Positions 10 through 20,898 of a DNA stretch of 64,000 nucleotides are shown one piece after another; the first letter of the stretch is position 1; every line of letters begins with the position of its first letter. The notes under the pieces were generated by a model that did no database searches, was not told the DNA's origin, and was given only the letters and a program-made list of their open reading frames with translations. The stretch is taken from positions 128,001 to 192,000 of the IMG/VR virus record IMGVR_UViG_3300021978_000001; one strand, written 5' to 3'. Origin of the DNA: a virus (lineage: Duplodnaviria > Caudoviricetes). The position numbers and the translations under genes were made by a program.

Positions 10-86
10 AGCAGCCAGTGGGAATCGAACCCACAACCTCCTCGGGACCATCACCACAGATGTGGTGAAAATTGAGCCATGGCTGC
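10..86 (-). ncRNA. tRNA-like RNA without anticodon arm; 25-nt hairpin motif inserted in the D region
   Basis: Perfect acceptor stem GCAGCCA/TGGCTGC, T-arm GTGGG-TTCGATT-CCCAC, D 5' strand GCTC; centre replaced by TTCACCACATCTGTGGTGATGGTCC. Confidence 0.7.
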
Positions 87-165
87 TTGCTCGTGAAGGG
101 CGTTGCCGTTCACGAGAGACACAACTAGGTGACGTGGAGAGTTATTCCACACCACCACGCGCGTG

Positions 166-771
166 TCAAACGTTCTGTGGGAATTGAGCCAGGAGATCCT
201 GATCCTGACCTGCAACACGCTGAACAGGGATGGCCGTAAACGTGGACCGCAGGCTCGCCGCGTAAGGCGTCTCGACCAGGAATTGGTATGCAGGCGCACA
301 CTTGATCGACTTCTGATCGCCCACACGTTGGCATTCGATCACGATGTCCTTTCCGACGCGGTTGGTGACCGAGGCGACACGCTCGACCTTCCCGACCTGC
401 AACCCCGCACCCATCACGCGATCATCCGTCACGACCTTGCGCGCGATCTTGGTGACGTAGAACAACCCTTCAGCGTCGAGGAAGAGCGCCGCCATGCGGT
501 CCTCGAAAGCGCTCTTACAGGAACTCTTGCGGTGATGGGAAAACGCACATTCGAGCTTGCGCAAACCATACACCACACCAAAGCCATCACCTTGGTGCGC
601 GTACTTGACGAGGATGGCGCACGCTTCCTGAATAGCCTTGCGGGTCTCTCCCGCCGAAGAGGAGACCCACGCGTCTACTTGCGTGGCAAGGGTATGTGCC
701 TGGAGAAAGTAGGAGAGCGCGGTTTGGGGAACGATGATCGCGGACATGATAGACACCTCGTGGTCAGTCAA
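166..771 (-). CDS. hypothetical protein
   Basis: 201-aa ORF on the coding strand, downstream of a sigma70-like promoter. Confidence 0.7.
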   Translation of the reverse strand: MTDHEVSIMSAIIVPQTALSYFLQAHTLATQVDAWVSSSAGETRKAIQEACAILVKYAHQGDGFGVVYGLRKLECAFSHHRKSSCKSAFEDRMAALFLDAEGLFYVTKIARKVVTDDRVMGAGLQVGKVERVASVTNRVGKDIVIECQRVGDQKSIKCAPAYQFLVETPYAASLRSTFTAIPVQRVAGQDQDLLAQFPQNV

Positions 772-804
772 AGATTGAGTGCGCGTTGCTCGCGCCGACA
801 GATC

Positions 805-833
805 TGTATACCACGAAGTAGGGTAGGCGTAAA
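805..833 (-). promoter_or_regulatory. sigma70-like promoter
   Basis: TTTACG-N17-TATACA with TGG before -10. Confidence 0.55.
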
Positions 834-841
834 AGGGAAAA

Positions 842-1342
842 TCAATTCAAGTGCGCAGATACCGCAAAAAGGTCCACGTGGAAAAACGAACGAAGATTTT
901 CCGTGAACGCTTCGAGTTCGGCCTCGACCCCCGCCAGGGTCGCCTCGCTCGGTGTCATGATCGGAATGCGCAAGTGGATGTGCACATGCGGCATCTCACG
1001 CAGCTCGTCCCACACCAGGCTCTCGATGTAGGGTAGACCACGCCCGAGGAAATCCCCGTGAGCCTGGCAAAACGAGCGCAAGGTTTGCTCCAGCTCCAAC
1101 ACCGAGATGTCCGGCTCCCAACACACAGGGCGCGTTGAAGGTTCGTCGAGGGAATGGTAAGGTGTGCCCTCGTAAGTCGTGCGTTTGACGCGAGGCTTGG
1201 AAGGGGCAGGAAGGTTTTCGTAATACTCTGGAGGGAAGGGAATCGGCTGCGGGAGCATGGGCGTGAAGGCTTCGTCAGCTTCCTCAAGCGCGTCGCTCTC
1301 CTCCGTTGAGAGAATAGGGGGCTGGTGATCATGCTCGGACAT
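842..1342 (-). CDS. hypothetical protein
   Basis: 166-aa ORF, SD-like spacing, fits operon. Confidence 0.7.
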   Translation of the reverse strand: MSEHDHQPPILSTEESDALEEADEAFTPMLPQPIPFPPEYYENLPAPSKPRVKRTTYEGTPYHSLDEPSTRPVCWEPDISVLELEQTLRSFCQAHGDFLGRGLPYIESLVWDELREMPHVHIHLRIPIMTPSEATLAGVEAELEAFTENLRSFFHVDLFAVSAHLN

Positions 1343-1357
1343 GAGGAAGCTCTATAG

Positions 1358-1654
1358 TCAATGCTCCTCAAGGAACTCCACGACATGCTCAAGGAGCTTT
1401 TCGCGACCACCAGGGGAGAGGTTCACATGATCGAGACGCCAGAGCCTTAGACGTTCCGTAGGCGTCAACAGCTCCTTGAGCGTCTCTTCCTGAAGGACAT
1501 GCTCCAGGGCAGCATCAAAGACTTTGGAGAGCCCACGGATGTCTTCATCATAGAGAGGCAACGTGCTCTCCCCGAAGAACTCCTTGAGCGTCTCTTTGTG
1601 GGCACACTGGAGCCGCTCACGCCACTGCTGATACAAACGCTCTCGATGACTCAT
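1358..1654 (-). CDS. hypothetical protein
   Basis: 98-aa ORF with GGAAG/AAGG upstream. Confidence 0.7.
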   Translation of the reverse strand: MSHRERLYQQWRERLQCAHKETLKEFFGESTLPLYDEDIRGLSKVFDAALEHVLQEETLKELLTPTERLRLWRLDHVNLSPGGREKLLEHVVEFLEEH

Positions 1655-1687
1655 CTTACTTCCTTGCCTTAGCGTCTTGCCTTGTCA

Positions 1688-2671
1688 TCAAGGCGTGACG
1701 GGATCTCCGAGGTCTGTTGCCCAGGGATGCAGGTAGCCCCGCAAAATGAACGTGAACACCTCTTCTGGCGCGCCTCCGAGGAACCGCCTACCATAAGGCG
1801 TCAGGAGGTTTGGCCACTCGCGCATGAACCGTTGATCGAAGTTGATGAACTGCCCATAGTCTGGTCCATCCTGTGGGATGACAATCGCAAGAGGCATCCT
1901 ACGCGAGCTGTAATCCCCTGCAATAGGGAAATGCGCATCATCAATGCCTGTGATCGCTCCGAAGAACCCGGGATACTGCTCGCCCTGGTAAGGACCATCC
2001 AGTTTCTCGGGAGCAAAGACCCACTGGTACGTCCTGCTCGCAGAAGGCACCCCGCTCGTGATCACGCCAGGATCGAACGCCGCGACACCTTGTGTTTGCC
2101 AGGTAAACTCGGGCGTCACCGCGAGCGGAGTCCTGGTCAAATCGAAGCAGTTCTCCGAGAACGCCCACATGCTCGGATAAACCGTACCTGAAGAGACCAT
2201 GAAGATCAACTCGGGGTAGTCATCATTCTCGATCAGATACAGGTTCAAGGTACCCGCGCCTGTATCGTAATCGTCGATGGTCTTCATGGGCGTCGAATCG
2301 GTCGGAAAGAACGCGGCATCAGCAGAGGGATCGAGCCCCCCGACAAACGAAGCAGCATATCCTCCGCCGTTGGCGTACCCGAAGCTAAGAGCGCCGTTCC
2401 CTTCGGTGTCATTGGTCACCCGAGCGCTCACCTCGATCTGGTCCGCGTAGCTTTGCTGGTAACCATTCGGAATCGCCACGAGGATCTCGTGAGCCCCTTG
2501 CGTCAACACGAAGTAGTTGTTCTCCGTGTTGCCTGTACCAAACGACTCCAGCGCGGAGACCGTCCATGTGGTGAGGTTCGTTGCAAAGAAGTTTTGCATG
2601 AACGTCCCCTCACCATTGGTGGTACCTGCGCCATACGGATCTCGCGTTGTCGTGTATCCAATACGTGGCAT
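1688..2671 (-). CDS. putative virion structural/tail-associated protein
   Basis: 327 aa, G/T/S/Y-rich beta-type composition, coupled (ATGA-like overlap) to the upstream gene. Confidence 0.55.
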   Translation of the reverse strand: MPRIGYTTTRDPYGAGTTNGEGTFMQNFFATNLTTWTVSALESFGTGNTENNYFVLTQGAHEILVAIPNGYQQSYADQIEVSARVTNDTEGNGALSFGYANGGGYAASFVGGLDPSADAAFFPTDSTPMKTIDDYDTGAGTLNLYLIENDDYPELIFMVSSGTVYPSMWAFSENCFDLTRTPLAVTPEFTWQTQGVAAFDPGVITSGVPSASRTYQWVFAPEKLDGPYQGEQYPGFFGAITGIDDAHFPIAGDYSSRRMPLAIVIPQDGPDYGQFINFDQRFMREWPNLLTPYGRRFLGGAPEEVFTFILRGYLHPWATDLGDPVTP

Positions 2672-3753
2672 CAGGGGAGTCCTGTAGGATCAGGGTAAGG
2701 GAACGACGGTTGATTGAGCGCATAGGGGAAGCAGAGCTGATCGTGGAGCTTGATGAACAAGCCACCATCGAACTGGGTATAGAGCTGACGCTCCGTCGCA
2801 CCCATCACGCGCACCACATCCGAATCCAGGTAACCCTTGTAGTACGTCGCGGAAGCGAGCGTCACGACATCCCAGGGGTAGCGTCCGTCCTCGAAGGGCA
2901 CGTTGAATTGCGTGAAATCCTGGTCGAAGTTGTCTTCCATGAGAAGCACCACACCGCCGTCATCCATCACGTAGTGCGTATCCGCGATAAGAGCAGCCGA
3001 AGTATTAAACCCGATACCAAACGACCCTGTGGTGAAGGTGTCTCCAGCACGATAAGGCACGACCACCTCACCGAGACCCATGATCCCACCGATCACATTC
3101 ACCTCTCCGAGCGACATGTAGGCAACCACGAAAGGCTTCACATCATCGAAGATGTACACCATACGTGAGCCCAAAACCTGGTTCGATGTACCCCCATATG
3201 CACCATCCGCGACGTAGCCATACACCGACCCTGCCGAGATAAACGCTGCGATGCCCGAAACCCATGGGTTTACCGCAGGCGTATCGAGGTCCCCACCAGG
3301 GAGCGAGCCATCAGCGTTCAAGCCTGCGCCATAAGGACTGACCGTGCCCCCTGTGGGGTGATAATGGATCGACACACCACCATCGGTGCCGAAGGTCGTA
3401 CCTCCGTCGATGTTGCGGTAGAAATCAGAGATCGTACCCGAGAACATATCCTCGTGCTCGGTCTCCGAGGTGCTGATCGCATACCCAGGGTAGGTGAACA
3501 ACCAGGCTGGACCCACGCGTGACGAAGGCGCGCCCCCATCCATCAGGAACACGATGAAGCCATATCCCTTATAGTTGGAACGACCCGGCCAACGGAACAC
3601 ATCCGAGACTTGCCAGTTGGTCTGGTTGGTATCAGGATCGAGCACATCACGGAAACGATCACGAATACGCACGACCTCGACGTCTGCGTCCGCATCACTC
3701 GAACAACGGCTGTTCGGGTCCCAAAGTCCAATGTCCACAAGATAACGCGCCAT
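2671..3753 (-). CDS. putative virion structural/tail-associated protein
   Basis: 360 aa, G/D/Y-rich; follows Ig-domain genes. Confidence 0.55.
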   Translation of the reverse strand: MARYLVDIGLWDPNSRCSSDADADVEVVRIRDRFRDVLDPDTNQTNWQVSDVFRWPGRSNYKGYGFIVFLMDGGAPSSRVGPAWLFTYPGYAISTSETEHEDMFSGTISDFYRNIDGGTTFGTDGGVSIHYHPTGGTVSPYGAGLNADGSLPGGDLDTPAVNPWVSGIAAFISAGSVYGYVADGAYGGTSNQVLGSRMVYIFDDVKPFVVAYMSLGEVNVIGGIMGLGEVVVPYRAGDTFTTGSFGIGFNTSAALIADTHYVMDDGGVVLLMEDNFDQDFTQFNVPFEDGRYPWDVVTLASATYYKGYLDSDVVRVMGATERQLYTQFDGGLFIKLHDQLCFPYALNQPSFPYPDPTGLP

Positions 3754-3809
3754 GGTATCCTCATCTTTGATGTGACAACGTTTGCCAAAGACACCAGGCT
3801 ACAAACAGA

Positions 3810-4325
3810 TTACGGGATCAACGTTACCGTAAGCTCATCCCGAAGCTCGAACGCGTTCGAGTCTGGAGAACCATCAGGCGTTACCTCCTCCACAGGTGTC
3901 AACACCACCGTATCGCGAGGCGAAAAGAACCTCGGATGGGACAGCGTATCGGTGTTCGCAGGGGTGCTCTCCAGGTACACGATCGGGAGGGAGTTGAACC
4001 CATAAAGCACGTTCAGATCTCCCTGAATCGTGATCGGGCCATCAGGGGAGTTATCCGCGAACAGGTTGAAGTTATCCGCCTTGTTGTCGAGCACCAGAAA
4101 CGAAGCCTCACCATTGACCAGGGTCTTCTGGTTGTCGATCAAGGTAAACGTCCCATCCTCGTCCGCGTCGAACAGGAGATCGAGATCTGCGCTGGTCAGC
4201 TCGACCACGGTCGTGTTGTCATCCGTGATCACGTTCCCGAGCGCATCGAGCGCGCGCACGATCACCGTGAAGGTCTCTCCTACTTGCACCGAGGAGGGCA
4301 CCAGGACTTGAAAGCTGTCAATCAT
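3810..4325 (-). CDS. Ig-like domain protein with conserved C-terminal HPRFF...PDGSPDSNAFELRDELTVT motif
   Basis: N-half aligns with the C-terminus of the 4670 protein; C-half aligns with the 4337 protein. Confidence 0.7.
   Translation of the reverse strand: MIDSFQVLVPSSVQVGETFTVIVRALDALGNVITDDNTTVVELTSADLDLLFDADEDGTFTLIDNQKTLVNGEASFLVLDNKADNFNLFADNSPDGPITIQGDLNVLYGFNSLPIVYLESTPANTDTLSHPRFFSPRDTVVLTPVEEVTPDGSPDSNAFELRDELTVTLIP
3813..3950. repeat. duplicated C-terminal coding module, copy 1 (copy 2 at 4340-4471)
   Basis: Near-identical peptide TLxHPRFFxxRDTVVxTPVxExTPDGSPDSNAFELRDELTVT; 28-nt identical DNA core catcccgaagctcgaacgcgttcgagtc. Confidence 0.85.
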
Positions 4326-4336
4326 GGTCGTGTCTC

Positions 4337-4660
4337 TTAGATGATGGTCACGGTGAGTTCATCCCGAAGCTCGAACGCGTTCGAGTCCGGGGAACCATCA
4401 GGCGTCGCTTCATCGACAGGCGTGAACACCACCGTATCTCTCGCCTCGAAGAACCTTGGGTGGTCGAGCGTCTCGGTGTCGATCGGCGTACTGTCCTCAT
4501 ACCGCAACGCGGCCCCTGCGACTCGCTGGAAGGTCCTGGAGTCTGTGGAGGGGGTACCCCCGGGGGCAACCGCTGCGGTGACCACCAGGTTGCCGTTGGA
4601 GGCATCACGCGCGCGAATCGTTACCTCCCCCTGAACCAATGTCTTTACATTATCAGGCAT
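4337..4660 (-). CDS. second half of a split Ig-like domain plus conserved C-terminal motif
   Basis: In frame with 4670-8494 after TGA-GAG-GTA-GTT; PDNVKTLVQG aligns with IDNQKTLVNG of the 3810 protein. Confidence 0.75.
   Translation of the reverse strand: MPDNVKTLVQGEVTIRARDASNGNLVVTAAVAPGGTPSTDSRTFQRVAGAALRYEDSTPIDTETLDHPRFFEARDTVVFTPVDEATPDGSPDSNAFELRDELTVTII
4340..4471. repeat. duplicated C-terminal coding module, copy 2
   Basis: See copy 1; same 16-bp palindrome CTCGAACGCGTTCGAG. Confidence 0.85.
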
Positions 4661-4669
4661 AACTACCTC

Positions 4670-7600
4670 TCAAGGTTCATCGAAGATGCCGTCATTGTCC
4701 CCATCGAACTCGATGTCATCATCCGAGGTCAGGAGCACCTGCGTCGTATTATCCGTCTTGACCGTCTTCCCGGTCACATCACGCGCCTGCACGCGGACAT
4801 CAAACTCATCCCCCGCCTGAATCCCCTCGGGGGCTGAAAGCTCGAAGTAAGAGACCGGCCCGAGCGCTTCGAGATAATGAGATTGAATCGTCACGGGGTC
4901 GAGCGCGCGGTCATAAATCGCGAGGTTCGCCACCGCGCCCTGCATCCCCTGCCCCACGCCGATCGAGAAGGGAAGCTGGACATCACCTGTGTAGGGCGTC
5001 GAAGCCACGACCTCACTGTCAATGTAAGCGCGCATCCAGGAGCCGTCATACGTGAGCACGATGTGGTAGAACTCTCCGATCTCACGATCAGGCAAGAGCA
5101 AGGTCTTCTGTCCCGTGCCCGTGGTCAAGGTCCACTGATACACCGTCGCATTGTTTGCTACCGTGAGGATGTCCGGGATGATCGCGGTCGCGGTATCAAA
5201 CCTCACGCGCGCCCACAGCTCAAGGGTAAATCCATTTGTGATCAAACCCGCGAGCGCATTGGTCGGTACGCGGACGTACCCCGCATCCACGTTAGCAGCA
5301 TTCTCCAGGTCCTTGGCGAGCGGTCCCAGGATATTGCGTGGTGCGTTCCCGAGGTAGGTGCCGTTGATCTGGAGCGGTCGCACATCATACGCCACCACAC
5401 CGCTCGCCTCGTTGAGCGGGTAGTACACCAACGGGGTATCATCGTAGACAAGCGCGGGATAGAACTGCCCGAAGACGCTCACGGTCACTTGTGAGGTGTC
5501 AGGGTTCGCGAAGGTATCCTCGATCGTATAATCGAACGTCGAGACTCCCAGGAAGGAAGTCGCGGGGGTAAACTGCAAGACGTTGTTTGGCCCTGCCCCC
5601 ACGATCGTGACCGCGCCTTCTGTGGGATTCGGCGCCACGAAACTCACCACCGTGAGGTCATCACCCTCGGGGTCTGTCGCATCTGCCAGGACATCGACCA
5701 CGGTCGCGCGCTCGAAGACGGTAGGCTGAAACACCGCCGCCGCTTGAGGAGGCTGGTTTGCCTCGATCGTCACTGTGACCGTGGCGGTGTCCTTGAGACC
5801 AAACTCATCCGAGATCTCATAGTCGAACGTGTCCACGAAAGGCGTGGGCAACAAGGGGTGCACGTAGGTGATGAAATCGTCGTAGACATCACCCGGGGTA
5901 CCCGCGTTGTTGATCGCGACCGTGCCCCCAAACTGACTCGTAGCATCCGCGTCCGAGATGAAGATCTGATCCCCATCCGGGTCACTGTCATTGACCCTCG
6001 GGTCCACGTTCAAGACCTGACCTTCTGCGACCGTCGCGGCGAAGTTATTCGCCACAGGGCGTTGGTTGGCGCCTACCTGGACACTGACTTGCGCGGACTC
6101 CACCTGGCCATACGAATCACGCGTGGTGCATGTCACGAGGAATGTCCCCACCCCTGTGAATTGATATACTCCAGACGCCGCCGTCGAGGTACCATCACCG
6201 CCAAAGTCCCAGAAGTATTCGTAGGACTTGTCAAAGCCGCTCTGCGCCGTGACCGTCGCAGAATACGAGATCTGCTCCGTGACGGGCAACACGAGGGGCG
6301 TCACCGAGATCGCCAGCTCGTAGCTCACCGCGACCTGAATCGTGTAGTCCCGTTGATTGCCGAAGGTGTCCTCGATCGTATACGAGAACGATGCAATGCC
6401 CACAAAGCCCGGCGAAGGCGTGAAGAGCAACGTATCATCCGTGAGATCACCAGGCGTGCCATTCTCGACGCGCGTAACCGTTCCGCCCGATGCGGGTTGA
6501 GTAAACGACACCAGCGAGATGGCCTCGCCTTCGGGATCACTCGCGAGTGCCAGCGGGTCCACCTCACGCGGTGTATCGAGCGGGGTCGAGACACGAAGGT
6601 TCGCGGCGCTCGGGCCAAAGTTGTTCACCGTGACGGTCACGGTACCTGTGTCAGTGCGCGTCCCGTCTTCGAGCGTGTACGTGAACGAAGTCGTCCCGGC
6701 AAAGCCTACATCCGCCGTGTACGTGATCGTGTTGTCTGCTTCGAGCACGACCGTCCCTTCTCCCACGGGCGGTTGTGTCACCGCTGTCACATCAAGGGGA
6801 TCAGGAAACGGCGTGGTGTCATTGGCGAGGACATTGATGTTGGTTGTCCCCTCGAACGGACATACCGCGTTGTCTGCGATGGCCGCGAACGCTTCCTGTT
6901 GCACGAGGATCGAGATCGACGCAGACGCGAAGAGACCATCCTCATCCTGGACCTGGTAAACGAACGTATCGGTCCCCAGGAAATCCGTGGGAGGAGTATA
7001 CTGCACCTGATTTGCGATAATAACCGCAGAGCCTCCCTGGTCCGTAGGCGTCTGCACATCGGTCAAGGTGAGCAGTTGGCTTGGGGGATCGGGGCGGTCA
7101 TTGGCTTGCGGAGAAAACGTCAGTGGCGTATTCGGCTCTGTCGTTCTGAAATCATTGACGGCCTGGATAGGCTGCTTGGGCGCGACCACCACCGTGACCA
7201 GAGCTTCATCCGTGGCTCCCGCGCCGTTGGTGATCTCGTAGGTGAAGGTGTCTTCGGCATCCTGAAAGTCATCGTCAGGCGTGTAGAGAAACGTCGCTGC
7301 CTCTCCTGCACCCTGAATCACCACAGTACCATTCGCAGGCTGCGTGAACGCACTGATCGACCCTGAGCCCCCAGGAGGGAAGCTGTCGTTGGCCAGCACT
7401 GTCAACGTTCGTGGGGTCTGGTAGGTCGTGGTATACAGATCATTGAACGCCACGAGATCCGGCACAGGGTCCACATTCACCGTCGCGAACGGCGTCGAGC
7501 GATTCGCAGTTCCATCAGTCACGAAGCCCACCGGCTGGAAGATGCCAACCTCGGTGTACTGATAGGTCGTACTGTTCGCGAGCTGCGGGCCAATCGAGGG

Positions 7601-8494
7601 GATGAACCCATCCGGGCTGAACGAATACTGGAGCGTGTCGTTATCGGGATCGGTGGCCGTGATCTCGAAGGTCACCGTCTCACCCTCGAAGATATTCAGG
7701 GTGCTCGACGGGCCGATGCCATTGGCGGTCGCGTTCTGAATCTCGGGGGGACGATTGTTGTTGGTGTTGAACGTCGAGCGCTGCTCACCATCAACCTCCA
7801 CGCCGTCCCCATACAATGCCACCTCGTCGATCAAACCATCGAAGCGCTGTGCGTTGTTGTACGCACCAACCTGAACATTCTCTGTACCGAGCGCGGGCGC
7901 AGGTGCGTTCGCGACCACAACCCCTTGCTCCCCGTTCAAGAAGACCGCGTTGGTCGTACCATCCCAGTTCCCCAGGACGTAGTAGTACGTGTTGGGCGTG
8001 ATCACCGAGGGACTGAAGGCGAGCTTGGCAGCAGCGGAGTCATTGTACCAGAATTTGATGCGACCATCAGGCAACAGGGAGAGCTGGAAGTTGTTAGCGC
8101 CCACGTTGTCTCCGCGCGACACCAACGTCTCCTCAGAGACGGGGAGCGCATCGACCTTGATCCAACATTCGACCGCGAATTGACTGAATGCCTGGTTGAG
8201 TGCGGCATTCGCGGTCACGTTAACAAAGCCATCGACACCATCGAGTTCGATCGCCGTGTCGAGCTGATCATTGGTCAGCGGGCTCTCGGCTTCGAGCGTG
8301 ATCCCTTGAGCAGTGAAGGTTCCGTTCGTTCCGTTCGGGGAGGAATCGAACGCCGTCAGCCCCTCAGTTTCCTGGAAACGAAGGTACATCAACGGATTGT
8401 CCCGCAACACAAAGGACGAGTAACGCAACCCACCCGGAACGAGTCGGTTGAAGTCAAACACCAGGTTGGGGTTCAGGTTGTTGAAATCGGCCAT
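4670..8494 (-). CDS. large adhesin/tail-fibre-like protein: LamG - cadherin-like/Ig (Big_9-type) repeats - PKD - LamG - half Ig
   Basis: Two LamG-type regions (F(S/T)vE.W, HIVLTYDG, FDGLIDEVALY), repeated A.ND...V..LAND...D...TFTYTI.D units, PKD WDFGGDG; start placed at MADFNN. Confidence 0.8.
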   Translation of the reverse strand: MADFNNLNPNLVFDFNRLVPGGLRYSSFVLRDNPLMYLRFQETEGLTAFDSSPNGTNGTFTAQGITLEAESPLTNDQLDTAIELDGVDGFVNVTANAALNQAFSQFAVECWIKVDALPVSEETLVSRGDNVGANNFQLSLLPDGRIKFWYNDSAAAKLAFSPSVITPNTYYYVLGNWDGTTNAVFLNGEQGVVVANAPAPALGTENVQVGAYNNAQRFDGLIDEVALYGDGVEVDGEQRSTFNTNNNRPPEIQNATANGIGPSSTLNIFEGETVTFEITATDPDNDTLQYSFSPDGFIPSIGPQLANSTTYQYTEVGIFQPVGFVTDGTANRSTPFATVNVDPVPDLVAFNDLYTTTYQTPRTLTVLANDSFPPGGSGSISAFTQPANGTVVIQGAGEAATFLYTPDDDFQDAEDTFTYEITNGAGATDEALVTVVVAPKQPIQAVNDFRTTEPNTPLTFSPQANDRPDPPSQLLTLTDVQTPTDQGGSAVIIANQVQYTPPTDFLGTDTFVYQVQDEDGLFASASISILVQQEAFAAIADNAVCPFEGTTNINVLANDTTPFPDPLDVTAVTQPPVGEGTVVLEADNTITYTADVGFAGTTSFTYTLEDGTRTDTGTVTVTVNNFGPSAANLRVSTPLDTPREVDPLALASDPEGEAISLVSFTQPASGGTVTRVENGTPGDLTDDTLLFTPSPGFVGIASFSYTIEDTFGNQRDYTIQVAVSYELAISVTPLVLPVTEQISYSATVTAQSGFDKSYEYFWDFGGDGTSTAASGVYQFTGVGTFLVTCTTRDSYGQVESAQVSVQVGANQRPVANNFAATVAEGQVLNVDPRVNDSDPDGDQIFISDADATSQFGGTVAINNAGTPGDVYDDFITYVHPLLPTPFVDTFDYEISDEFGLKDTATVTVTIEANQPPQAAAVFQPTVFERATVVDVLADATDPEGDDLTVVSFVAPNPTEGAVTIVGAGPNNVLQFTPATSFLGVSTFDYTIEDTFANPDTSQVTVSVFGQFYPALVYDDTPLVYYPLNEASGVVAYDVRPLQINGTYLGNAPRNILGPLAKDLENAANVDAGYVRVPTNALAGLITNGFTLELWARVRFDTATAIIPDILTVANNATVYQWTLTTGTGQKTLLLPDREIGEFYHIVLTYDGSWMRAYIDSEVVASTPYTGDVQLPFSIGVGQGMQGAVANLAIYDRALDPVTIQSHYLEALGPVSYFELSAPEGIQAGDEFDVRVQARDVTGKTVKTDNTTQVLLTSDDDIEFDGDNDGIFDEP

Positions 8495-8519
8495 GGCACC
8501 ATCTCGGGTGGAAAGGGTC

Positions 8520-9029
8520 TCACGCCCCTGTGAATATAGATGCACTATGGAGCGCGAGCACTACCGAAGCGAGGACAATCGAGAAGCCCATGAGCCGGAA
8601 CCACCACACTGACCAACCAAGCGTCTCCGAGGCTCGCATGAGGTCTGACCGAGGGGTGATAGCAATAGAGTTCGTGATCATATCCACCACACCACCCCCC
8701 ATAAGCACGAGCCACAACAAGAGCAGGTAACCCTGCAACCCGAGCACAACACCCACCGGCAAGAGCACACAAGCAAGGAGGCTCGGAAGGCGTGGTGCGC
8801 ACAGGATCGCGACGCGTTGCCACTTCGTGGGTGGGCGGATCATGTAGTAGCGCGTATGCGCCCACTGGAACCCGCCAGGGATACGGCGAGGGCGCAAGTC
8901 AATCGTGTAATGCACCACACCGACCAGACGGTCTGCGGTCCACACATGCGAATACTCGTGCACGAAAGCCCACAACAAGTAGACCAACGGTGCGAGATAG
9001 AAAAGATGCAAGAGAAGCCAGGGGGACAT
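8520..9029 (-). CDS. membrane zinc metalloprotease-like protein (M50/zincin-like)
   Basis: HEYSH motif in a TM helix, several hydrophobic segments, later D-containing motif (GVVDM..SDL); SD AGGAGG. Confidence 0.6.
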   Translation of the reverse strand: MSPWLLLHLFYLAPLVYLLWAFVHEYSHVWTADRLVGVVHYTIDLRPRRIPGGFQWAHTRYYMIRPPTKWQRVAILCAPRLPSLLACVLLPVGVVLGLQGYLLLLWLVLMGGGVVDMITNSIAITPRSDLMRASETLGWSVWWFRLMGFSIVLASVVLALHSASIFTGA

Positions 9030-9312: not shown

Positions 9313-9389
9313 GAGGTTCTCCTTGTGATACAGGTGAAGTGAACGAACCATTCACACTTCCTATACCACAAGAAAGACTTGACGTAAAC

Positions 9390-12823: not shown

Positions 12824-12826
12824 AAG

Positions 12827-15404: not shown

Positions 15405-15437
15405 TCAGCATGGCGTGATCAGGAAAACCAGCCAAAG

Positions 15438-15510
15438 TATCGCCACGGGGACTCGAACCCCGACCTTGAACGTGAAAGGCTCATGTCCTGACCAGTTAGA
15501 CGATGGCGAC
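15438..15510 (-). tRNA. trnE: tRNA-Glu(TTC)
   Basis: Cloverleaf, loop CTTTCAC. Confidence 0.9.
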
Positions 15511-15541
15511 GTCGAGGTCTACAACACGAGCAAAGCCACCC

Positions 15542-15949
15542 TCATTCCCCCGCGTCGGGGGATGTGCCCTTGATCTTGACGGGGCGAAGCTCCAAGGTCG
15601 TATGCACATAGGGTCTGTAATCGAAAGGCGCAAGGCTCGTGTTCGGAGTCTGCACCATGAGACGCAGGGTAGGTGTCTTTCCAGGGTCCGATAAAGCATG
15701 ATCACACAGCTCGCGCAACTTCCTTGCATCAAACCCTACCTCATCCCAGGCAGAAGAGTCTGTCCTGGATACAAACGCGTTCGCGGTAAAGAACACCCGC
15801 ACGTCTTTCCCTTCCATTTCAGGAATCGCACAACGATCTCGGAGTCGATTGAGATACGCTTCGAGCGCCTCGAACGCAGACCACCACACCTCACAGGGAT
15901 ATGCAGGGTGTTTGGGTTGAATAAACGCTTCGACGAGCCAGGCCATCAT
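15542..15949 (-). CDS. hypothetical protein
   Basis: Start at MMAWL with ATGA overlap to the upstream gene. Confidence 0.65.
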   Translation of the reverse strand: MMAWLVEAFIQPKHPAYPCEVWWSAFEALEAYLNRLRDRCAIPEMEGKDVRVFFTANAFVSRTDSSAWDEVGFDARKLRELCDHALSDPGKTPTLRLMVQTPNTSLAPFDYRPYVHTTLELRPVKIKGTSPDAGE

Positions 15950-16257
15950 GCTTTTCCCCGATCGTCTGTGTCTTCTGTATGGAGCGTGCGACTCGTGCGG
16001 CCCTGGTACCAATCCTCAAGGATCATGTATGTGAACCCACCGACCAGCATGGGCATCGTCAAGGTGACCGCACATGCCGTAGCAACGCTCTCGCCCGCAT
16101 CGAGACACTTGGCCTTGATATGAGGGCGCAAGGGCTTGGGAGAAATCGCTGCGGCGCCTATGGCCATGAGCTTCGAGGTCTCCTGGATGAGGTAGGGGAC
16201 CGTGGTGTAGAACTTCTCCGAGAAGGCCGTATCATCGAAGGGTGACCTGAACTTCAT
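15946..16257 (-). CDS. small membrane protein
   Basis: C-terminal hydrophobic helix; coupled overlaps. Confidence 0.6.
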   Translation of the reverse strand: MKFRSPFDDTAFSEKFYTTVPYLIQETSKLMAIGAAAISPKPLRPHIKAKCLDAGESVATACAVTLTMPMLVGGFTYMILEDWYQGRTSRTLHTEDTDDRGKA

Positions 16258-16616
16258 AATTCTTCCTGATTTGCAGGGTTAGGGTTGCGAGGGCTTCGGA
16301 TACGATCACGCTCGCGTCTATGACGGTTGCCGATCTTGTCAAGCACTGTAGCATACCCGTACATCCCGACCCCCACAGGGATCATCGTGGCACAGTACAC
16401 CGACAAGGCCAGTCCCGTCCCTAGACCGAGCGCCGCGAAATCCACGACATACCCGAACTCATCTTTGGTGGCCTTGTTGAAACCATAAGCGGCCATCGCA
16501 AAACCGCGTTGGATGCAGAAGGGTACAAACGAAGTGACCGCATCGAGCGGTCCGTTCGCCTCTTTGGGAGAAGGAAAGAAGACAAGCATGAACACCTCTC
16601 GTGATGAACAGTTCAA
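16254..16616 (-). CDS. small membrane protein
   Basis: Gly-rich hydrophobic hairpin. Confidence 0.6.
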   Translation of the reverse strand: MNCSSREVFMLVFFPSPKEANGPLDAVTSFVPFCIQRGFAMAAYGFNKATKDEFGYVVDFAALGLGTGLALSVYCATMIPVGVGMYGYATVLDKIGNRHRRERDRIRSPRNPNPANQEEL

Positions 16617-16867
16617 TCACGTACTGCGTCATACACCATCACTGCGGTCATCGCAGGAAAGGCACAGACACCGTATGCTATCACAGAGAGGGTACCTCCC
16701 ACAAACGAAACCGTAAAGCCCAGTGCCTCTCCTACGATAGGCACTGGGTCGAGCTGTTTGGCAGCGGCCTTGCTCACGCTCCCGATCACCCAGGAAGGCG
16801 CAGGTGCAATGTGATCGAGATAGAAACGCAGACCTGCATCCACGCAATCGTCCAACTTCTCTGCCAT
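16613..16867 (-). CDS. small membrane protein
   Basis: Gly-rich hydrophobic hairpin; SD AGGAG. Confidence 0.65.
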   Translation of the reverse strand: MAEKLDDCVDAGLRFYLDHIAPAPSWVIGSVSKAAAKQLDPVPIVGEALGFTVSFVGGTLSVIAYGVCAFPAMTAVMVYDAVRD

Positions 16868-16895
16868 AGCTCTTTACTCCTCATGGATATGCTGC

Positions 16896-18431
16896 TTACG
16901 CGCCCGCATCACGAGTGATGGTCGCGCCACCAAGCGAGTTATCTACCGTGCCACCATACACCGTACCACCCAGGACGTTGACCGTCGCGGCGCCGTTGAC
17001 GATGAGCCCTCCCATGATCTCACAACCACGGAAGTTTACGGTGCCATCGGTATCCAGGGTCACCGATCCCACAAAGACGACCCCGTTGAAGTCCGCGTTC
17101 CCATCTGTGATGACTGTATCACCGCGCACGGTGCCCCCGTTCACAGTAAGGGTCGTCCCTTCCTTGGTGAGATCATTACACTGCAAGGTATCGACAACGA
17201 AGCGGTTACCCCCAAAGATCGTGAGGTTGCCCCCAACGTTCAAGTGCTGGAAGCGCACGGGATAGTTGGGGCTATCCATCTTGAAGTAACGGAAGAACGC
17301 ATCACGATGAACATCAAGTCGCTGCGGGCTGAACAACGCAGTGCTGTTCCCCGCGTGCCCATCAAAAGCAAGGGTACCTGGAATCACACGAGGGCCTGAA
17401 TCCAGCAACCCCCAACCCGAATTTGACGATGCAGGTCCGAGAGTTGCGTCGTTTTTATTTGCAATCACCCAAACATCACGATCGCTGGCATCTACCGTCG
17501 AAGCGATCTGGCACTCAGCATCCCAATCCACACGAGACTCTGCAAAGGCAAAGCCCTTGGCCTGAGGAATCACCGTCACATCCTTCCCAAAGTAAGCGGA
17601 ATCCACGCTCTGGAACCAGACGTTACGCAAGAGGCACGCATCGATCTCCAGATCTTCTACATCCTCCCCGAGCACGCCAAAGGCATACAGCTCGTTCGGG
17701 TAAAGGTTGCGCAGATAAACCTCTTCTACTGGAGACAGCGAATCATCGGTGAACACCGTGAAGTCTTCTCCCGTGTACGTGTAAACGCCATCTCCATCCA
17801 CATCCCAAGTAGGCCCGCCTGCGGTATACCAGGCAAAGGCTTCTGCCTGTGTTGCGTTGGTGATCAGTATCGCCGTAAACAGGTTGAAGGTGCTCTTGTG
17901 TACGGGAAGCTCGGCACCGATCACGCGGGTATTGGAGCGGTTTACCACCAAAACCGAATCCTCCAGCGTATCTCCGTAAACAGGTGACCACCCATTGTTC
18001 ACACTGAGAGGGGGACCCACATCGACGACCTGCTTACCAATCACCACTTCAAGCGTGATCACAGGGTCGAGCACCTCTCTACCCCAGTCGATTGCAGCTT
18101 GCGGGTGAGCAAACAGGGTATTCAAGGGGTCGAGGACCGCAGCTTCGTTATCCCCCAACATCTTGTCCACGTTCACGCGGACCACATTGTACATGTTGGA
18201 GTCTTGCTCCTGGACGGTCAGGAAGCCCGCTTCGAGGAAGCCACGCAGGGTACCCTGAGAGTAGGAGTAGTACACCACAGGATCGTTGAGGTCGAACGCG
18301 ACGCTCTCACCAGGTGCAATATAACGCGGCGTCTCAGGGTTCGCGTCCTTTTGCTCGTCATCGCGATCGAGATCATTGACATAGAGAGTAGAATCAACCG
18401 TGGACGTGTGCTTTACAAGAATCATCGACAT
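16896..18431 (-). CDS. putative virion protein with C-terminal beta-helix
   Basis: 511 aa; C-terminal repeating G/V/T/N strands (GGTVRGDTVITDG...GGTVYGGTV). Confidence 0.65.
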   Translation of the reverse strand: MSMILVKHTSTVDSTLYVNDLDRDDEQKDANPETPRYIAPGESVAFDLNDPVVYYSYSQGTLRGFLEAGFLTVQEQDSNMYNVVRVNVDKMLGDNEAAVLDPLNTLFAHPQAAIDWGREVLDPVITLEVVIGKQVVDVGPPLSVNNGWSPVYGDTLEDSVLVVNRSNTRVIGAELPVHKSTFNLFTAILITNATQAEAFAWYTAGGPTWDVDGDGVYTYTGEDFTVFTDDSLSPVEEVYLRNLYPNELYAFGVLGEDVEDLEIDACLLRNVWFQSVDSAYFGKDVTVIPQAKGFAFAESRVDWDAECQIASTVDASDRDVWVIANKNDATLGPASSNSGWGLLDSGPRVIPGTLAFDGHAGNSTALFSPQRLDVHRDAFFRYFKMDSPNYPVRFQHLNVGGNLTIFGGNRFVVDTLQCNDLTKEGTTLTVNGGTVRGDTVITDGNADFNGVVFVGSVTLDTDGTVNFRGCEIMGGLIVNGAATVNVLGGTVYGGTVDNSLGGATITRDAGA

Positions 18432-18500
18432 GATGGTGCCTCATTTGGGAAGTAGGAAGGACATCAACTCCCACCTTTACACCACTGCGACTATATAAAT

Positions 18501-18562
18501 AAAAAAAGCCCGGCGAAGCGTGTAGCTTCAGTGCAAGACCAAAACCAAACGCATCACCGGGC
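18501..18562 (-). terminator. long-stem intrinsic terminator after tRNA-Pro
   Basis: GCCCGGTGA/TCGCCGGGC plus GCGT/ACGC, followed by T7. Confidence 0.65.
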
Positions 18563-18571
18563 GGGTTAGAA

Positions 18572-18643
18572 TCTGGATGGCAGGAATCGAACCTGCGTGG
18601 ACGTGCTCCCAAAGCACGTGGACAACCATTATCCCACATCCAG
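18572..18643 (-). tRNA. trnP: tRNA-Pro(TGG)
   Basis: Cloverleaf, loop TTTGGGA. Confidence 0.9.
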
Positions 18644-18648
18644 TTATG

Positions 18649-18799
18649 TGGTCGCGGACACTGCCTGTTGATTCAGGTGCTCGACCAGGTTCGATCGCAG
18701 TGAGGTTAGAAGCCTGTGCGCGTCGTCTTTGCCAAGAGTTGAAGAGTGATGAAGTCCTCAACGTGGCCCCGGTCATCACTCCGGGACTCCAGATCCGCG
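18649..18799 (-). ncRNA. candidate structured tRNA/tmRNA-like ncRNA
   Basis: Terminal stem CGCGGAT/GTCCGCG + ACCA; pseudoknot CCCGG/CCGGG with AGTGATGA/TCATCACT; AGG-CTTCTAA-CCT hairpin; CCTG/CAGG hairpin. Confidence 0.55.
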
Positions 18800-18801
18800 A
18801 G

Positions 18802-18875
18802 TCGGGATAACAGGATTTGAACCTGCGACCTCTGGTCCCCCAGACCAGCGCGCTGCCAAGCTGCGCCATATCCCG
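18802..18875 (-). tRNA. trnP: tRNA-Pro(GGG)
   Basis: Cloverleaf, loop CTGGGGG. Confidence 0.95.
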
Positions 18876-18906
18876 ATCGAGAGGTACAACCACCTCTCAT
18901 AGTCGT

Positions 18907-19584
18907 CTATTCCGCGTCCGCCGCAAGAAGTCCCAGCACGCGCGATAGCATGACAGCTTCAGGTATACGCACCTGATTGAACATCCTGAGCCAGAGGTGC
19001 ATGTATCCTTCGGCATGCAACGCGATAAGAAGTGCTGCCAGTGCCGCTTGCTTCGGGAGCTGATAACCTTCCTCATGCTCCACGAAGACTTCACGCAACC
19101 AGATCTCAGCGTCATGCATCGTCAAGTCACCTGATTGCAAGGCTTGACGAAGCTCAGACACATACTCAGAACGCTGGAGCGCCACCAGGATGCCGCGCGG
19201 CGAAGAAAGGTAGATGAAGGTGCTCGTGAGATCGTTGAGGCTCTCACAAGCCGCGTCAAGACGTTGCAAGCACTTTGGGGTCTCATAGCCGAGACGCCTT
19301 CGGTGCTGTGTGTTGATGGGAAAAGGCGTAAGCTCTTCCAAGGCTACGGAACGTCCGAGCCTCTCCTCGAAACATCCCAGGCAAATGATACCTCCCAGAC
19401 GGTCCGCAGGTTGCATGACTTCGAGCCACAGGTCATTGCGGACCATGAACTCGTCTTCGATCTCGGTATCTCGCTGACACACCTGACAACAGAACACATA
19501 CTCGTCATCCTCACCTGCATCACGTCGCCAAACACCAGGTCGGACGCGCTCCCAACCCTGAGCTTCTCTTTCTTCTGCACGCAT
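18907..19584 (-). CDS. hypothetical protein with N-terminal Zn-binding motif
   Basis: CQVC ... ICLGCFEERLGR; SD GGAGGT. Confidence 0.75.
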   Translation of the reverse strand: MRAEEREAQGWERVRPGVWRRDAGEDDEYVFCCQVCQRDTEIEDEFMVRNDLWLEVMQPADRLGGIICLGCFEERLGRSVALEELTPFPINTQHRRRLGYETPKCLQRLDAACESLNDLTSTFIYLSSPRGILVALQRSEYVSELRQALQSGDLTMHDAEIWLREVFVEHEEGYQLPKQAALAALLIALHAEGYMHLWLRMFNQVRIPEAVMLSRVLGLLAADAE

Positions 19585-19624
19585 CGCTTACCTCCGAGCG
19601 TCGGTTCCCTCATGTTATAGAGGA

Positions 19625-19653
19625 TGCATACCACAAAAGCAAGACCGTGTAAA
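19625..19653 (-). promoter_or_regulatory. sigma70-like promoter
   Basis: TTTACA-N17-TATGCA, TGG before -10. Confidence 0.5.
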
Positions 19654-19658
19654 AGGAG

Positions 19659-20102
19659 TTATTCGGTATCGAGATCTGGATTGAGATCAGTCTCGGGGAG
19701 GGACTCGACCGTGAAGAGGCGACGCCCGATAGAGTGATAGTCCATGCGCCTACGAAGGGGCTCGACCATGCGCTCTGCAATATGCTCACGTCCATGGTGA
19801 TTCGCGATCATGCGACTTAACCAGCTCTGCCATTCATGATCGCGACGCTCTGCTTGAGGCAATGTGCCGATGCCTTGCGCGAGCGCGTCTCCGAGCACGG
19901 TGCGCACGTACACATCCCGAACGTAATGCCTATGCCGTGACATCGCAGGAGAGTCGAAAGGCTCATCGCTGTCGAGCCAGATCGCCTCATCCAAAATACC
20001 CGCAAGCGTCAGAGCTTGATCCCACAAGCCTCGGTTCATCATCGAACGCAGATCCCCGAAAGTCAGCGCACGCACGTCTTCGGCTGACCAGAGGTCACTC
20101 AT
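19659..20102 (-). CDS. hypothetical protein
   Basis: Start placed at MSDLW. Confidence 0.65.
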   Translation of the reverse strand: MSDLWSAEDVRALTFGDLRSMMNRGLWDQALTLAGILDEAIWLDSDEPFDSPAMSRHRHYVRDVYVRTVLGDALAQGIGTLPQAERRDHEWQSWLSRMIANHHGREHIAERMVEPLRRRMDYHSIGRRLFTVESLPETDLNPDLDTE

Positions 20103-20775
20103 CGCTTCCGTCGCTTTCCGTAATCTCGAAGAGAGGAGCAAAGACGCGATGAAACTTAACTGGTTGCTCTTGTAGGGACTGCTTCGTGACTTGGCGTAGA
20201 CGATCGGCCTCCCTCATTTCAGCGTTGGCGCGAATGCGTTGCTGCACGGTGAGCACTTCTGAGGGAGCAGGGATGCAAACCGCGTCGGGATACCTCTCGG
20301 AGCGCCAACGTGCGAGCGCCTCGCGCAACCCAGTGACGTAATCCTCCATATCCTCGGGAGAAACGTTCGTCACGCAAGAGGTGCTTGGGATACGCGAAGT
20401 CGTCACGTTCTTACACGTCACGTTCTCAGCAAGCCAACACTTGCGCGCTTTCTGTTGCCTTTCCACGTAGGAAAGCTCCTTGCTTGCTTTCTCGCTGGTC
20501 TCATCGTTGACTTCCGCACACGTATCCGAGAGCTTCGCAGAGAAAGCCTTTGTGGCCTCGGTCGCACCCGAAAACGAAAAACCCCAGCATTCCATGGCAC
20601 GTGTTGCGATCTCTAGCGATAAACGCCTGACCGCTTCAGGGTTTGAGACCTTGCCCTCACCTTCGCAACCCGTGCAAGGATTCTCGACGGTCACCAAGCC
20701 CACATACTTACCCTGACCATCGCAACGGTCACAACGTTTATACAGATCCTCAAGCTCCCAACTACCCTTACCCAT
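20095..20775 (-). CDS. hypothetical protein with N-terminal DnaJ-type zinc finger
   Basis: CDRCDGQGKYVGLV...CTGCEGEG; SD GGAGG. Confidence 0.75.
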   Translation of the reverse strand: MGKGSWELEDLYKRCDRCDGQGKYVGLVTVENPCTGCEGEGKVSNPEAVRRLSLEIATRAMECWGFSFSGATEATKAFSAKLSDTCAEVNDETSEKASKELSYVERQQKARKCWLAENVTCKNVTTSRIPSTSCVTNVSPEDMEDYVTGLREALARWRSERYPDAVCIPAPSEVLTVQQRIRANAEMREADRLRQVTKQSLQEQPVKFHRVFAPLFEITESDGSDE

Positions 20776-20806
20776 AACTATCCTCCGCGTTTCATGTGAT
20801 CAAAAA

Positions 20807-20898
20807 GAGCCGGGTGGGACTCGAACCCACGACATACCGCTTAAAAGGCGGATAGGACCATCCCCGCATGTGCGAGGAACAATAGCCCCACCCGGCAG
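20807..20898 (-). ncRNA. tRNA-Lys(TTT)-like RNA with 25-nt hairpin motif inserted in the D-loop
   Basis: Anticodon arm CCGC-CTTTTAA-GCGG, T-arm GTGGG-TTCGAGT-CCCAC, D-stem GGGC/GTCC around an expanded loop, imperfect acceptor stem. Confidence 0.7.

Follow-up and report, generated by a model that had tools for sequence, protein, structure and literature searches.

Engineered polycistronic tRNA-gRNA arrays (reportedly Xie et al. 2015) and tRNA scaffolds for RNA expression (reportedly Ponchon and Dardel 2007) are said to place a tRNA beside or around a guide or hairpin, with RNase P and 3' processing defining the ends of the RNA and stabilizing it, and virus-borne mini-arrays in inter-viral conflict are said to have been described by Medvedeva et al. 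2019. Al-Shayeb et al. 2020 (PMC7162821) documented huge phages whose CRISPR-Cas systems lack Cas1 and have compact arrays, with spacers directed at rival phages. Two kinds of repeat-derived phage RNA are also relevant, namely, viral solitary repeat units that act as RNA anti-CRISPRs (Racr; Camara-Wilpert et al. 2023, PMC10651486) and phage crRNA-like regulatory RNAs (Cracr), which consist of one repeat-like unit, a spacer-like stretch, and a terminator (bioRxiv 10.1101/2024.10.29.618823).

The window, by which we mean the whole stretch of 64,000 nucleotides analyzed (positions 128,001 to 192,000 of IMGVR_UViG_3300021978_000001; coordinates below refer to the window unless marked as genome positions), comes from the 437-kb genome of a marine giant phage. 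This genome carries about 65 copies of a 29-nt type I-E repeat, spread over at least 12 mini-arrays. Each repeat comprises 5 nt, a 6-bp G+C-rich stem with a 4-nt loop, and an 8-nt 3' part, AUGGUCCN, that gives rise to the 5' handle of the crRNA; the modal guide length of the arrays is 32 nt, and the ordinary arrays terminate in a truncated, hairpin-only repeat. The cas genes, located 110 to 130 kb from the loci described below, encode Cascade (a Cse1-Cse2 fusion, Cas5e, Cas6e, and Cas7e) and Cas3, and no Cas1 gene was found in the genome. Cas6e is intact, matching TIGR01907 at 4.5e-27, and its catalytic His motif (Y-x-L-H-Q) and Gly-rich loop align with those of E. coli CasE. The phage thus resembles the huge phages and the viral mini-arrays in its Cascade-Cas3 without Cas1, its many short arrays, and their plausible use against competitors, but here arrays, cas genes, and a tRNA operon are interspersed, and two units are fused into tRNA genes. 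Six of the seven solitary or mini units of the tRNA region lie inside a tRNA gene or within 45 nt of one. Among the other single-repeat units, that at genome position 127051 (repeat, 32 nt, and tRNA-Met) is a natural look-alike of the tRNA-gRNA constructs, and that at genome position 405003 (repeat, 32 nt, and terminator, with an array-type promoter upstream) has the same design as Cracr. None of the approximately 55 ordinary spacers matched the ~80 kb of relatives' sequence.

The two fused units, L1 and L3, are best read as lysine tRNA genes in which a single copy of the type I-E repeat of this phage stands in for part of the sequence. A weight matrix trained on 63 array repeats, with which approximately 875,000 genome windows were scanned, gave 37.7 bits for the L3 repeat and 22.6 bits for the L1 repeat, against 28 to 48 bits for the array repeats. 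The 67 windows that reach 22.6 bits are all CRISPR repeats, and no nonrepeat window in the 437 kb scores above 12 bits; the structure common to L1 and L3 far exceeds chance. The sequence-only reading had recognized new structure in the D region of three tRNA-like loci and regarded it as an undescribed motif; the structure is real in L1 and L3, but it is a type I-E CRISPR repeat, and the third locus, L2, has no repeat. All three loci are on the minus strand of the window, with L1 and L3 on the coding strand within tRNA/gene operons. Repeat and hairpin scans detected no second repeat or hairpin about 32 nt downstream of L1 or L3, and a generic promoter and terminator scan returned nothing at either locus; the one promoter candidate of L1 is a loose TTGACA-N19-TAACTC match, and L3 has no array-type promoter or leader. 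Sampled sequence words of the region had no occurrence in the one metatranscriptome of the source sample. As in Racr, a lone repeat in a phage genome keeps the Cas6-binding hairpin and the handle. In contrast to Racr, the repeat is embedded in a tRNA-derived gene, the promoter directly upstream is a loose match or missing, and the phage encodes an entire I-E interference module of its own and has many arrays built on that repeat, whereas Racr are not cas associated. Racr are inhibitors of CRISPR-Cas, an activity that is putative for L1 and L3. The tRNA-gRNA constructs differ from L1 and L3 in that the latter are natural, belong to type I-E, have a truncated tRNA with the repeat inside it, and are processed only putatively.

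L1 (positions 9 to 86, minus strand) was delimited with ARAGORN, the Rfam tRNA model, folding, and comparison with tRNA-Lys(CUU). In RNA order, it consists of the acceptor 5' strand (86-80), UGGCUCA (79-73), the CRISPR repeat (72-44), 26 nt of variable loop and T arm (43-18), and the acceptor 3' strand (17-11). The repeat (44 to 72, minus strand), which was also recovered by a hairpin-plus-ATGG scan, is divergent but has a 6-bp stem, a 4-nt loop, and an intact 8-nt 5' handle, AUGGUCCC, at 51-44. Compared with the array repeats, its stem carries a compensatory change of the C7-G20 pair to A-U, and its hairpin matches that of the repeat at genome position 408260 at 14 of 16 bases. The hairpin occupies the D loop of a tRNA-Lys(CUU)-like shell in which a 7-bp acceptor helix, the D stem, and a perfect T arm are present and the anticodon arm is missing. 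ARAGORN calls the gene an aberrant tRNA-Gln with the anticodon at position 28, and its Rfam tRNA score is 30.0 bits (cutoff, 29), compared with 45 to 70 bits for neighboring tRNAs. The closest paralogue of the tRNA parts is tRNA-Lys(CUU) at positions 22966 to 23040 (minus strand; ARAGORN, Rfam tRNA, and comparison): the two genes agree at every position of GCTCAATT and of a 22-nt stretch of variable loop plus T arm, and the acceptor helix differs in sequence with all seven pairs kept. The closing helix begins at nucleotide 27 after the repeat, not at nucleotide 33, and the guide region is nearly all folded into T arm and acceptor. We found no target for this guide in the genome or the relatives searched, and it has mismatches at seed positions 1, 2, and 4 to every tRNA gene examined.

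The L3 tRNA-like locus (20806-20898, minus strand) belongs to a unit that spans positions 20801 to 20918 on the same strand. The unit contains, in RNA order, an upstream hairpin (~20918-20900), a 13-nt 5' strand (20896-20884), an A (20883), the CRISPR repeat (20882-20854, minus strand; handle AUGGUCCU at 20861-20854), 32 nt of tRNA-Lys(UUU) at the guide position (20853-20822, minus strand; anticodon arm, variable loop, and 5' part of the T arm), a 13-nt 3' strand (20821-20809), and a U-run (20808-20802). By BLAST, the repeat matches 28 other repeats of the genome. The 5' third of the tRNA is replaced, with the repeat joined directly to tRNA nucleotide 26. A 13-bp helix starts exactly at nucleotide 33 after the repeat and is the minimum-free-energy fold (z = -4.3); this outer helix is shifted by 2 nt from the register of the original acceptor, its pairing is in competition with that of the T stem, and the Rfam tRNA match (30.5 bits) is confined to 20806-20864. 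An inverted duplication could have produced the 13-nt 5' strand as a side effect. Two syntenic relatives, L158 and L159, have a normal tRNA-Lys(UUU) in place of L3, and L3 is evidently derived from the orthologous intact gene. Its 32 nt are identical to L158 at 32 of 32 positions (preceded there by AAC) and to L159 at 30 of 32 by manual count from the alignment (28 of 29 by BLAST); because the match to L158 reflects orthology, it is not independent evidence of targeting. No second tRNA-Lys(UUU), or its 5' third, occurs elsewhere in the genome. L3 is close to the Cracr design in its order of repeat, 32 nt, 13-bp helix, and U-run, but its helix pairs with a strand upstream of the repeat, which makes the layout circularly permuted, and its guide is a former tRNA, whereas that of Cracr partially matches a cas or toxin promoter; a search of the phage genome for a regulatory target of the L3 guide found none.

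L2 (18644 to 18800, minus strand) is a conserved structured RNA of about 150 nt, with an 11-bp closing stem and four internal helices, that fits exactly between tRNA-Pro(GGG) and tRNA-Pro(UGG) (18572-18643 and 18801-18875, minus strand; ARAGORN and Rfam tRNA). It is conserved in both L158 and L159, and the consensus fold has 43 pairs, five of them with compensatory changes among three sequences only. It has no T arm, no CRISPR repeat by the matrix, no paralogue in the genome, and no match in an Rfam search; its putative UCU loop (CUUCUAA) is GAAAA in L159, and its putative CCA is CCUUUU in both relatives. With neither T arm, repeat, conserved loop, nor CCA, L2 is not tRNA scaffolded and is unrelated to L1 and L3. 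It is probably released through processing of its two flanking tRNAs and is known from this phage group only. The T4 tRNA cluster is said to encode small stable RNAs, species 1 and 2 or RNA C and D, and L2 is like them in being a structured, non-tRNA RNA of about 150 nt between tRNA genes that is probably freed by tRNA processing; it differs in having no sequence or Rfam relation to them.

These results recast the proposed family of tRNA-scaffolded RNAs. All three loci are present, and L1 and L3 do share a tRNA-derived shell around a foreign hairpin, but as repeat-tRNA chimeras to which L2 does not belong. The tRNA-like outer helices hold for the 7-bp acceptor and T arm of L1; the outer helix of L3 is new, and L2 falls outside. 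As for the anticodon-type loops, L3 retains the Lys UUU loop, but the UCU loop of L2 is not conserved. The 19 interspersed canonical tRNAs are a count over the whole window, with only 8 inside 10-20898. Binding to a phage protein, also suggested earlier, is plausible for L1 and L3, the hairpin being the predicted recognition site of the phage's own Cas6e. A canonical tRNA, with a full cloverleaf of D, anticodon, and T arms and a 7-bp acceptor, was rejected for each of L1, L2, and L3.

L1 and L3 carry the phage's own type I-E repeat and are therefore probably cut by its Cas6e and guide-like rather than toxin decoys. Our leading explanation, held tentatively and at somewhat less than even confidence, is that Cas6e cuts both into single-repeat crRNA-like RNAs and that L3 could guide Cascade against related phages. 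Cas6e would bind the repeat hairpin and cut at its 3' base, leaving the 8-nt AUGGUCC(N) handle followed by tRNA-derived sequence. In L3, the handle would be followed by exactly 32 nt and then by the 13-bp helix, tying the 3' end back to the strand that bears the Cas6e-bound hairpin through a 6-nt linker (5 nt in a normal crRNA), so that a single repeat could be the source of the 5' handle and of the 3' hairpin alike. The ends of L1 could be trimmed by RNase P and the 3' processing machinery, attracted by what is still a genuine tRNA shell (acceptor helix, D stem, and T arm). More speculatively, the L3 guide in the phage Cascade-Cas3 would recognize the intact tRNA-Lys(UUU) of related phages, and the phage's own copy would be protected because the repeat occupies the PAM side. 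Such a guide, in contrast to those of the huge-phage systems, would stem from the phage's own gene and not from acquired foreign DNA; lacking Cas1, the phage may generate or maintain guides through insertion of a repeat beside its own copy of a conserved sequence.

A doubtful but serious alternative is that both loci are neutral scars, formed by recombination between a tRNA gene and an array belonging to the phage or to a host that shares its repeat family, either at a tRNA-matching spacer or through microhomology of the D loop (A/UAGGUCA) with the handle (AUGGUCC); the RNAs would then be made, and perhaps cut, but useless. Private solitary repeats replace ancestral sequence beside conserved sequence in each of three lineages (in L158 at 6010 and in L159 at 9324), a sign of rapid turnover. 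The kin sequences in question have AAC, AGT, and TTT where a PAM would lie and thus share no consistent PAM. The origin of L3 deprived the phage of its sole tRNA-Lys(UUU), and L1, found in no other sample or relative examined, is absent from L216 and L217. Against scars, the L3 repeat has an intact handle and a score typical of functional array repeats, L1 has preserved its hairpin, acceptor helix, D stem, and T arm, in part through compensatory changes, and the 13-bp helix begins precisely where a 32-nt guide would end. The L3 allele also recurs in three studies, being gap-free on contigs from two others (seawater and sediment).

It is unlikely, though conceivable, that the RNAs are Racr-like sponges or regulators of Cas6e and Cascade, i.e., stable tRNA-scaffolded repeat RNAs that bind Cas6e and on which Cas5/Cas7 assembly starts and is then blocked by the folded tRNA part. 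Their effect would be either to tune the phage's own system or to sequester the I-E machinery of a rival phage or host whose repeats belong to the same family. Viral solitary repeats can be RNA anti-CRISPRs, with I-E examples included (PMC10651486). Cross-talk is possible because the repeat family also occurs in large arrays of Kiritimatiellia, Lentisphaeria, Akkermansia, Terriglobia, and Deinococcus genomes; the guide region of L1 is nearly wholly folded, the stem change near its cleavage site might alter cutting, and a tRNA shell would confer stability and defined ends. However, the phage needs the same repeat for its more than 55 guides and encodes its own Cascade-Cas3, and a sponge would therefore inhibit the phage itself. 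None of the 737 spacers from those bacterial arrays matches the phage, and Racr units typically lie directly behind a promoter, which neither locus clearly does.

The earlier proposal of tRNA-like decoys or aptamers for anticodon nucleases (PrrC, RloC, and PARIS AriB for Lys; colicin D for Arg) is very improbable: the anticodon stem-loop of tRNA-Lys(UUU) in L3 is complete and unchanged relative to its relatives, but it is there by descent and the relatives retain a functional tRNA, L1 has no anticodon arm, the L2 loop is not conserved, the phage genome encodes no RtcB, and the feature common to L1 and L3 is the Cas6e site rather than an anticodon loop. The counterdefense enzymes said to lie among the loci (HD_4, ADP-ribosylglycohydrolase, RNase T-like exonuclease, and guanylate kinase) are nearby, which would suit decoys, but at 23.9 to 32.4 kb they are beyond 10-20898, where only a subthreshold Macro match occurs; they are neighbors of the three loci, and any link would be hypothetical.

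For annotation, the two loci illustrate that tRNA finders report such chimeras as odd tRNAs, as ARAGORN did for L1. Even if they are only scars, they indicate that repeats and tRNA genes recombine repeatedly in phages, and L3 shows that a phage can lose a tRNA through repeat fusion. If L1 and L3 are processed and loaded, they would be a natural counterpart of the engineered tRNA-guide RNA constructs, would show that one repeat suffices to build a functional crRNA, and would reveal how phages without Cas1-Cas2 can gain guides against close relatives. In its boldest form, which we regard as a long shot, a Cas1-less giant phage would turn its own conserved genes into weapons: a repeat inside tRNA-Lys would yield a circularly permuted crRNA that staples itself, with one repeat serving as handle and Cas6e hairpin and with tRNA-type folding and processing setting the ends; this crRNA would direct Cascade-Cas3 against siblings that keep the intact gene, and each lineage would be evolving its own units.

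When L3, one of two tRNA-derived RNA genes that carry a single CRISPR repeat (20806-20898, minus strand; the other, L1, lies at 9-86, minus strand), was compared by BLAST with the genome of the phage itself, 27 nt of the L3 D region matched at 28 further sites with a spacing of ~61 nt. These sites are type I-E-style CRISPR arrays with 29-nt repeats (consensus GTGTTCCCCGCGCATGCGGGGATGGTCCG) and 32-nt spacers, and the genome holds ~65 minus-strand repeat copies, distributed over at least 12 mini-arrays and several solitary copies. Genes encoding a Cse1-Cse2 fusion, Cas5e, Cas6e, Cas7e, and Cas3 are found at genome 13.6-22.3 kb, and mini-arrays separate the cas genes (L011 and L012, two stretches outside the window at genome 13.1-31.2 kb and 405-408.7 kb). 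The Cas6e (genome 17051-17776) shares its catalytic Y-x-L-H-Q motif and its glycine-rich loop with E. coli CasE, and no Cas1 is encoded in the phage genome. Together, these data establish the identity of the repeat and the presence of a cognate Cas6e and Cascade-Cas3. Using a weight matrix built from 63 array repeats to score ~875,000 genome windows, we obtained 37.7 bits for L3, inside the array range of 28 to 48 bits, and 22.6 bits for L1; all 67 windows scoring at least 22.6 bits are repeats. Six array leaders have TTGACA-N18-TACCYT in common, a promoter type confined to array leaders, and normal arrays end economically in a truncated repeat with the hairpin present and the ATGGTCC handle absent.

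The phage record is complete (437,490 bp with direct terminal repeats, of which the window represents bases 128001-192000), and the genes and tRNAs of the window are on the minus strand. The same sequence is found in a hydrothermal-vent metagenome record, and seawater and sediment metagenomes contain pieces that are nearly identical. ARAGORN called 20 tRNAs in the window and 33 in the genome, and Rfam recovered 17 window tRNAs at 44 to 70 bits, with L1 (30.0 bits) and L3 (30.5 bits) as borderline extra matches. At the Rfam gathering and E-value thresholds, L1 and L3 matched only tRNA, at the borderline, L2 (a separate structured RNA at 18644-18800, minus strand) matched nothing, and YrlA/Y RNA gave no match. 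No close relatives were found in IMG/VR with a 511-aa neighboring protein and Cas7e as queries, and GenBank phages resemble this phage only at the level of tRNAs. Among GTDB genomes (L221, L277, L278, L292, and others), long arrays of the repeat family to which the phage repeat belongs, with the ending GGGGATGGTYC, are present in Kiritimatiellia, Lentisphaeria, Akkermansia, Terriglobia, and Deinococcus, which are possible host lineages; 737 spacers from those bacterial arrays gave 0 significant matches to the phage. The window also encodes a 1,291-aa protein with LamG, Big_9, and cadherin-like repeats (4670-8545, minus strand), adjoining a Cpn10 (GroES-like) gene and conserved in two further loci (L160 and L217), which is probably a virion surface or adhesion protein.

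Two syntenic relatives recovered from Logan assemblies, L158 (69% amino acid identity) and L159 (54%), both have a canonical tRNA-Lys(UUU) at the place orthologous to L3. In the alignment, everything from the upstream stop codon through tRNA nucleotide 25 has been replaced in the phage by, in order, a small hairpin, a 13-nt strand (GCCGGGUGGGGCU), one A, and the repeat, and the sequence from nucleotide 26 to the trailing U-run is unchanged, with the 48 nt 3' of the repeat 100% identical to L158. By this comparison, L3 is clearly a remodelled tRNA-Lys(UUU) in the derived state. It is the sole tRNA-Lys(UUU) locus in the phage genome. The chimera is not an assembly artefact, since it is spanned in other studies by a 525-nt seawater contig (11 differences, no gaps) and an identical 240-nt sediment contig. 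A split tRNA can be dismissed, as the missing 5' third is not encoded anywhere else in the genome, and so can religation of Cas6e products, as the genome has no RtcB.

The geometry of L3 is likewise evident. The new 13-nt strand differs from the old acceptor strand. It forms 13 bp, one of them G-U, that take up the end of the T loop, the 3' strand of the T stem, and a portion of the acceptor 3' strand, and is thus in competition with the T arm. This helix is the minimum-free-energy fold (z = -4.3) and begins at nucleotide 33 counted from the repeat, right after 32 nt, the modal spacer length. On the other side, its partner strand is followed by 6 nt and then the repeat hairpin, compared with 5 nt between spacer and hairpin in a normal crRNA.

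L1 is a tRNA-Lys(CUU)-like shell. Its D stem and the start of its D loop (GCTCAATT), as well as the 22 nt that make up its variable loop plus T arm, are identical to those of the phage's own tRNA-Lys(CUU), and its acceptor helix is wholly unlike in sequence yet keeps 7/7 pairs. The repeat hairpin is located in the D loop; CACCAC-AUCU-GUGGUG shares 14/16 bases with the repeat at genome 408260 and is set apart from every array repeat by the compensatory replacement of a C-G pair with A-U. The 8-nt handle (AUGGUCCC), the 3' part of the repeat that becomes the crRNA 5' handle, is intact, and AUGGUCC within it overlies the native UAGGUCA, which preserves the two G's responsible for the normal contact with the T loop. 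L1 lacks an anticodon arm and, at 78 nt in total, has a tRNA-like length. By eye, TTGACA lies ~60 nt upstream and a hairpin with a U-run lies downstream; a generic promoter and terminator scan around L1 returned nothing, and the array-type promoter is poorly matched. An L1 ortholog was not found: the gene upstream has no homolog, L216 and L217 have neither repeat nor L1 at the site, the L158 contig stops short of it, and the other runs do not cover L1. With this same coverage, no L1 was found in a second sample.

Solitary repeats recur in this phage and its relatives. The tRNA operon immediately upstream of the window is interspersed with repeats, singly or in pairs: one stands before 32 nt and tRNA-Met (genome 126944-127018), another before 35 nt and tRNA-Val, and further repeats lie 35 to 40 nt behind tRNA-Ala and tRNA-Ile. 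The unit at genome 405003 has one repeat, 32 nt, and a terminator, driven by a promoter and leader of the array type. L158 has a private solitary repeat at 6003-6031 before tRNA-Phe and L159 has one at 9324-9352, each replacing ancestral sequence next to conserved sequence; therefore, repeat grafts are recurrent and lineage specific. A closing helix in these units was not convincing, amounting by eye to a misplaced 7-bp complement in L159. Pattern searches for a handle with a T arm behind it, run on IMG/VR and JGI metagenome contigs that exclude the phage's own record, gave 88 and 53 matches; each was an ordinary long-arm tRNA or a tRNA-Sec, and no additional chimera emerged. An IMG/VR scan with the repeat itself found many phage I-E mini-arrays, none adjoining a T arm.

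Several other features of these regions were observed. The first acceptor pair of the tRNA-Met is a T-T mismatch, as in initiator tRNAs, and a tRNA with a CUA (amber-reading) anticodon at genome 120038-120110 has a degenerate solitary repeat ~100 nt upstream. The L158 repeat is in frame within a 17-codon mini-ORF upstream of tRNA-Phe, and the window equivalent (24,762-24,815) has none. A repeat-like hairpin with ATGG after it at 22414-22444 (minus strand) lies inside ORF 21906-22475. It is conserved in both L158 and L159 and most likely represents coding sequence with a chance resemblance to the repeat. A circularly permuted tRNA-like unit, ordered as T arm, acceptor 3' strand, short loop, acceptor 5' strand, and D arm, lies just before the window (L013:19330-19560; genome 127,330-127,560) and at L217:12190-12330. 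A conserved cassette (GGGTTATC ... TAAAACCC) and an outer stem surround this unit, which the phage has in common with a 397-kb distant relative.

L2 exactly fills the gap between two tRNA-Pro genes, a setting comparable to that of the small stable RNAs of the T4 tRNA cluster. It has no CRISPR repeat, no paralog in the genome, and no Rfam relative, and a homolog search with a 16-mer of its invariant hairpin gave chance matches only. It is conserved in L158 and L159, with a consensus fold of 43 pairs, 5 of them with compensatory changes among only three sequences. L2 is a real conserved structured RNA unrelated to L1 and L3. The new D-region structure that the sequence-only reading described in all three loci is a type I-E repeat within a tRNA-derived gene in L1 and L3 but not in L2, and that reading holds in part, both as observation and as interpretation. 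Its proposal of decoys for anticodon nucleases fails on conservation, given the missing anticodon arm of L1 and an L2 loop that varies among relatives: the supposed UCU anticodon loop is GAAAA in L159, and the supposed CCA is CCUUUU in both L158 and L159. The accompanying counterdefense genes do exist (HD_4, ADP-ribosylglycohydrolase, RNase T-like exonuclease, and guanylate kinase) but lie outside the range proposed for the system, and no link to the RNAs was seen.

As established for type I-E, Cas6e would bind L1 and L3 and cut at the stem base, presumably yielding the handle followed by tRNA-derived sequence. We speculate that the L3 product may be loaded into Cascade and target related phages that keep tRNA-Lys(UUU); Cas1-less systems that target rival phages have been described in huge phages (PMC7162821). 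The L3 guide, the stretch 3' of the handle, matches tRNA-Lys(UUU) of L158 at 32/32 positions, owing to orthology, with AAC preceding, and the presence of the repeat on the PAM side might protect the phage's own L3. The triplets at the PAM position in three kin pairs disagree (AAC, AGT, and TTT), and the L1 guide has no identifiable target. Ordinary phage spacers matched neither the recovered sequence of the relatives nor the phage's own genome, and a comparison with the foreign loci examined, made for PAM inference, gave only orthologous array flanks in L214. Rival explanations are that L1 and L3 act as Cas6e/Cascade sponges of the Racr type (PMC10651486) or that they are neutral recombination scars. 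The L3 junction would fit recombination between a spacer and its protospacer, but the PAM triplets are inconsistent. Phage crRNA-like regulators provide a precedent for a single repeat with a guide and a terminator (bioRxiv 10.1101/2024.10.29.618823). L1 and L3 are a variant of viral solitary CRISPR repeat units, one built into the tRNA genes of a CRISPR-armed giant phage.
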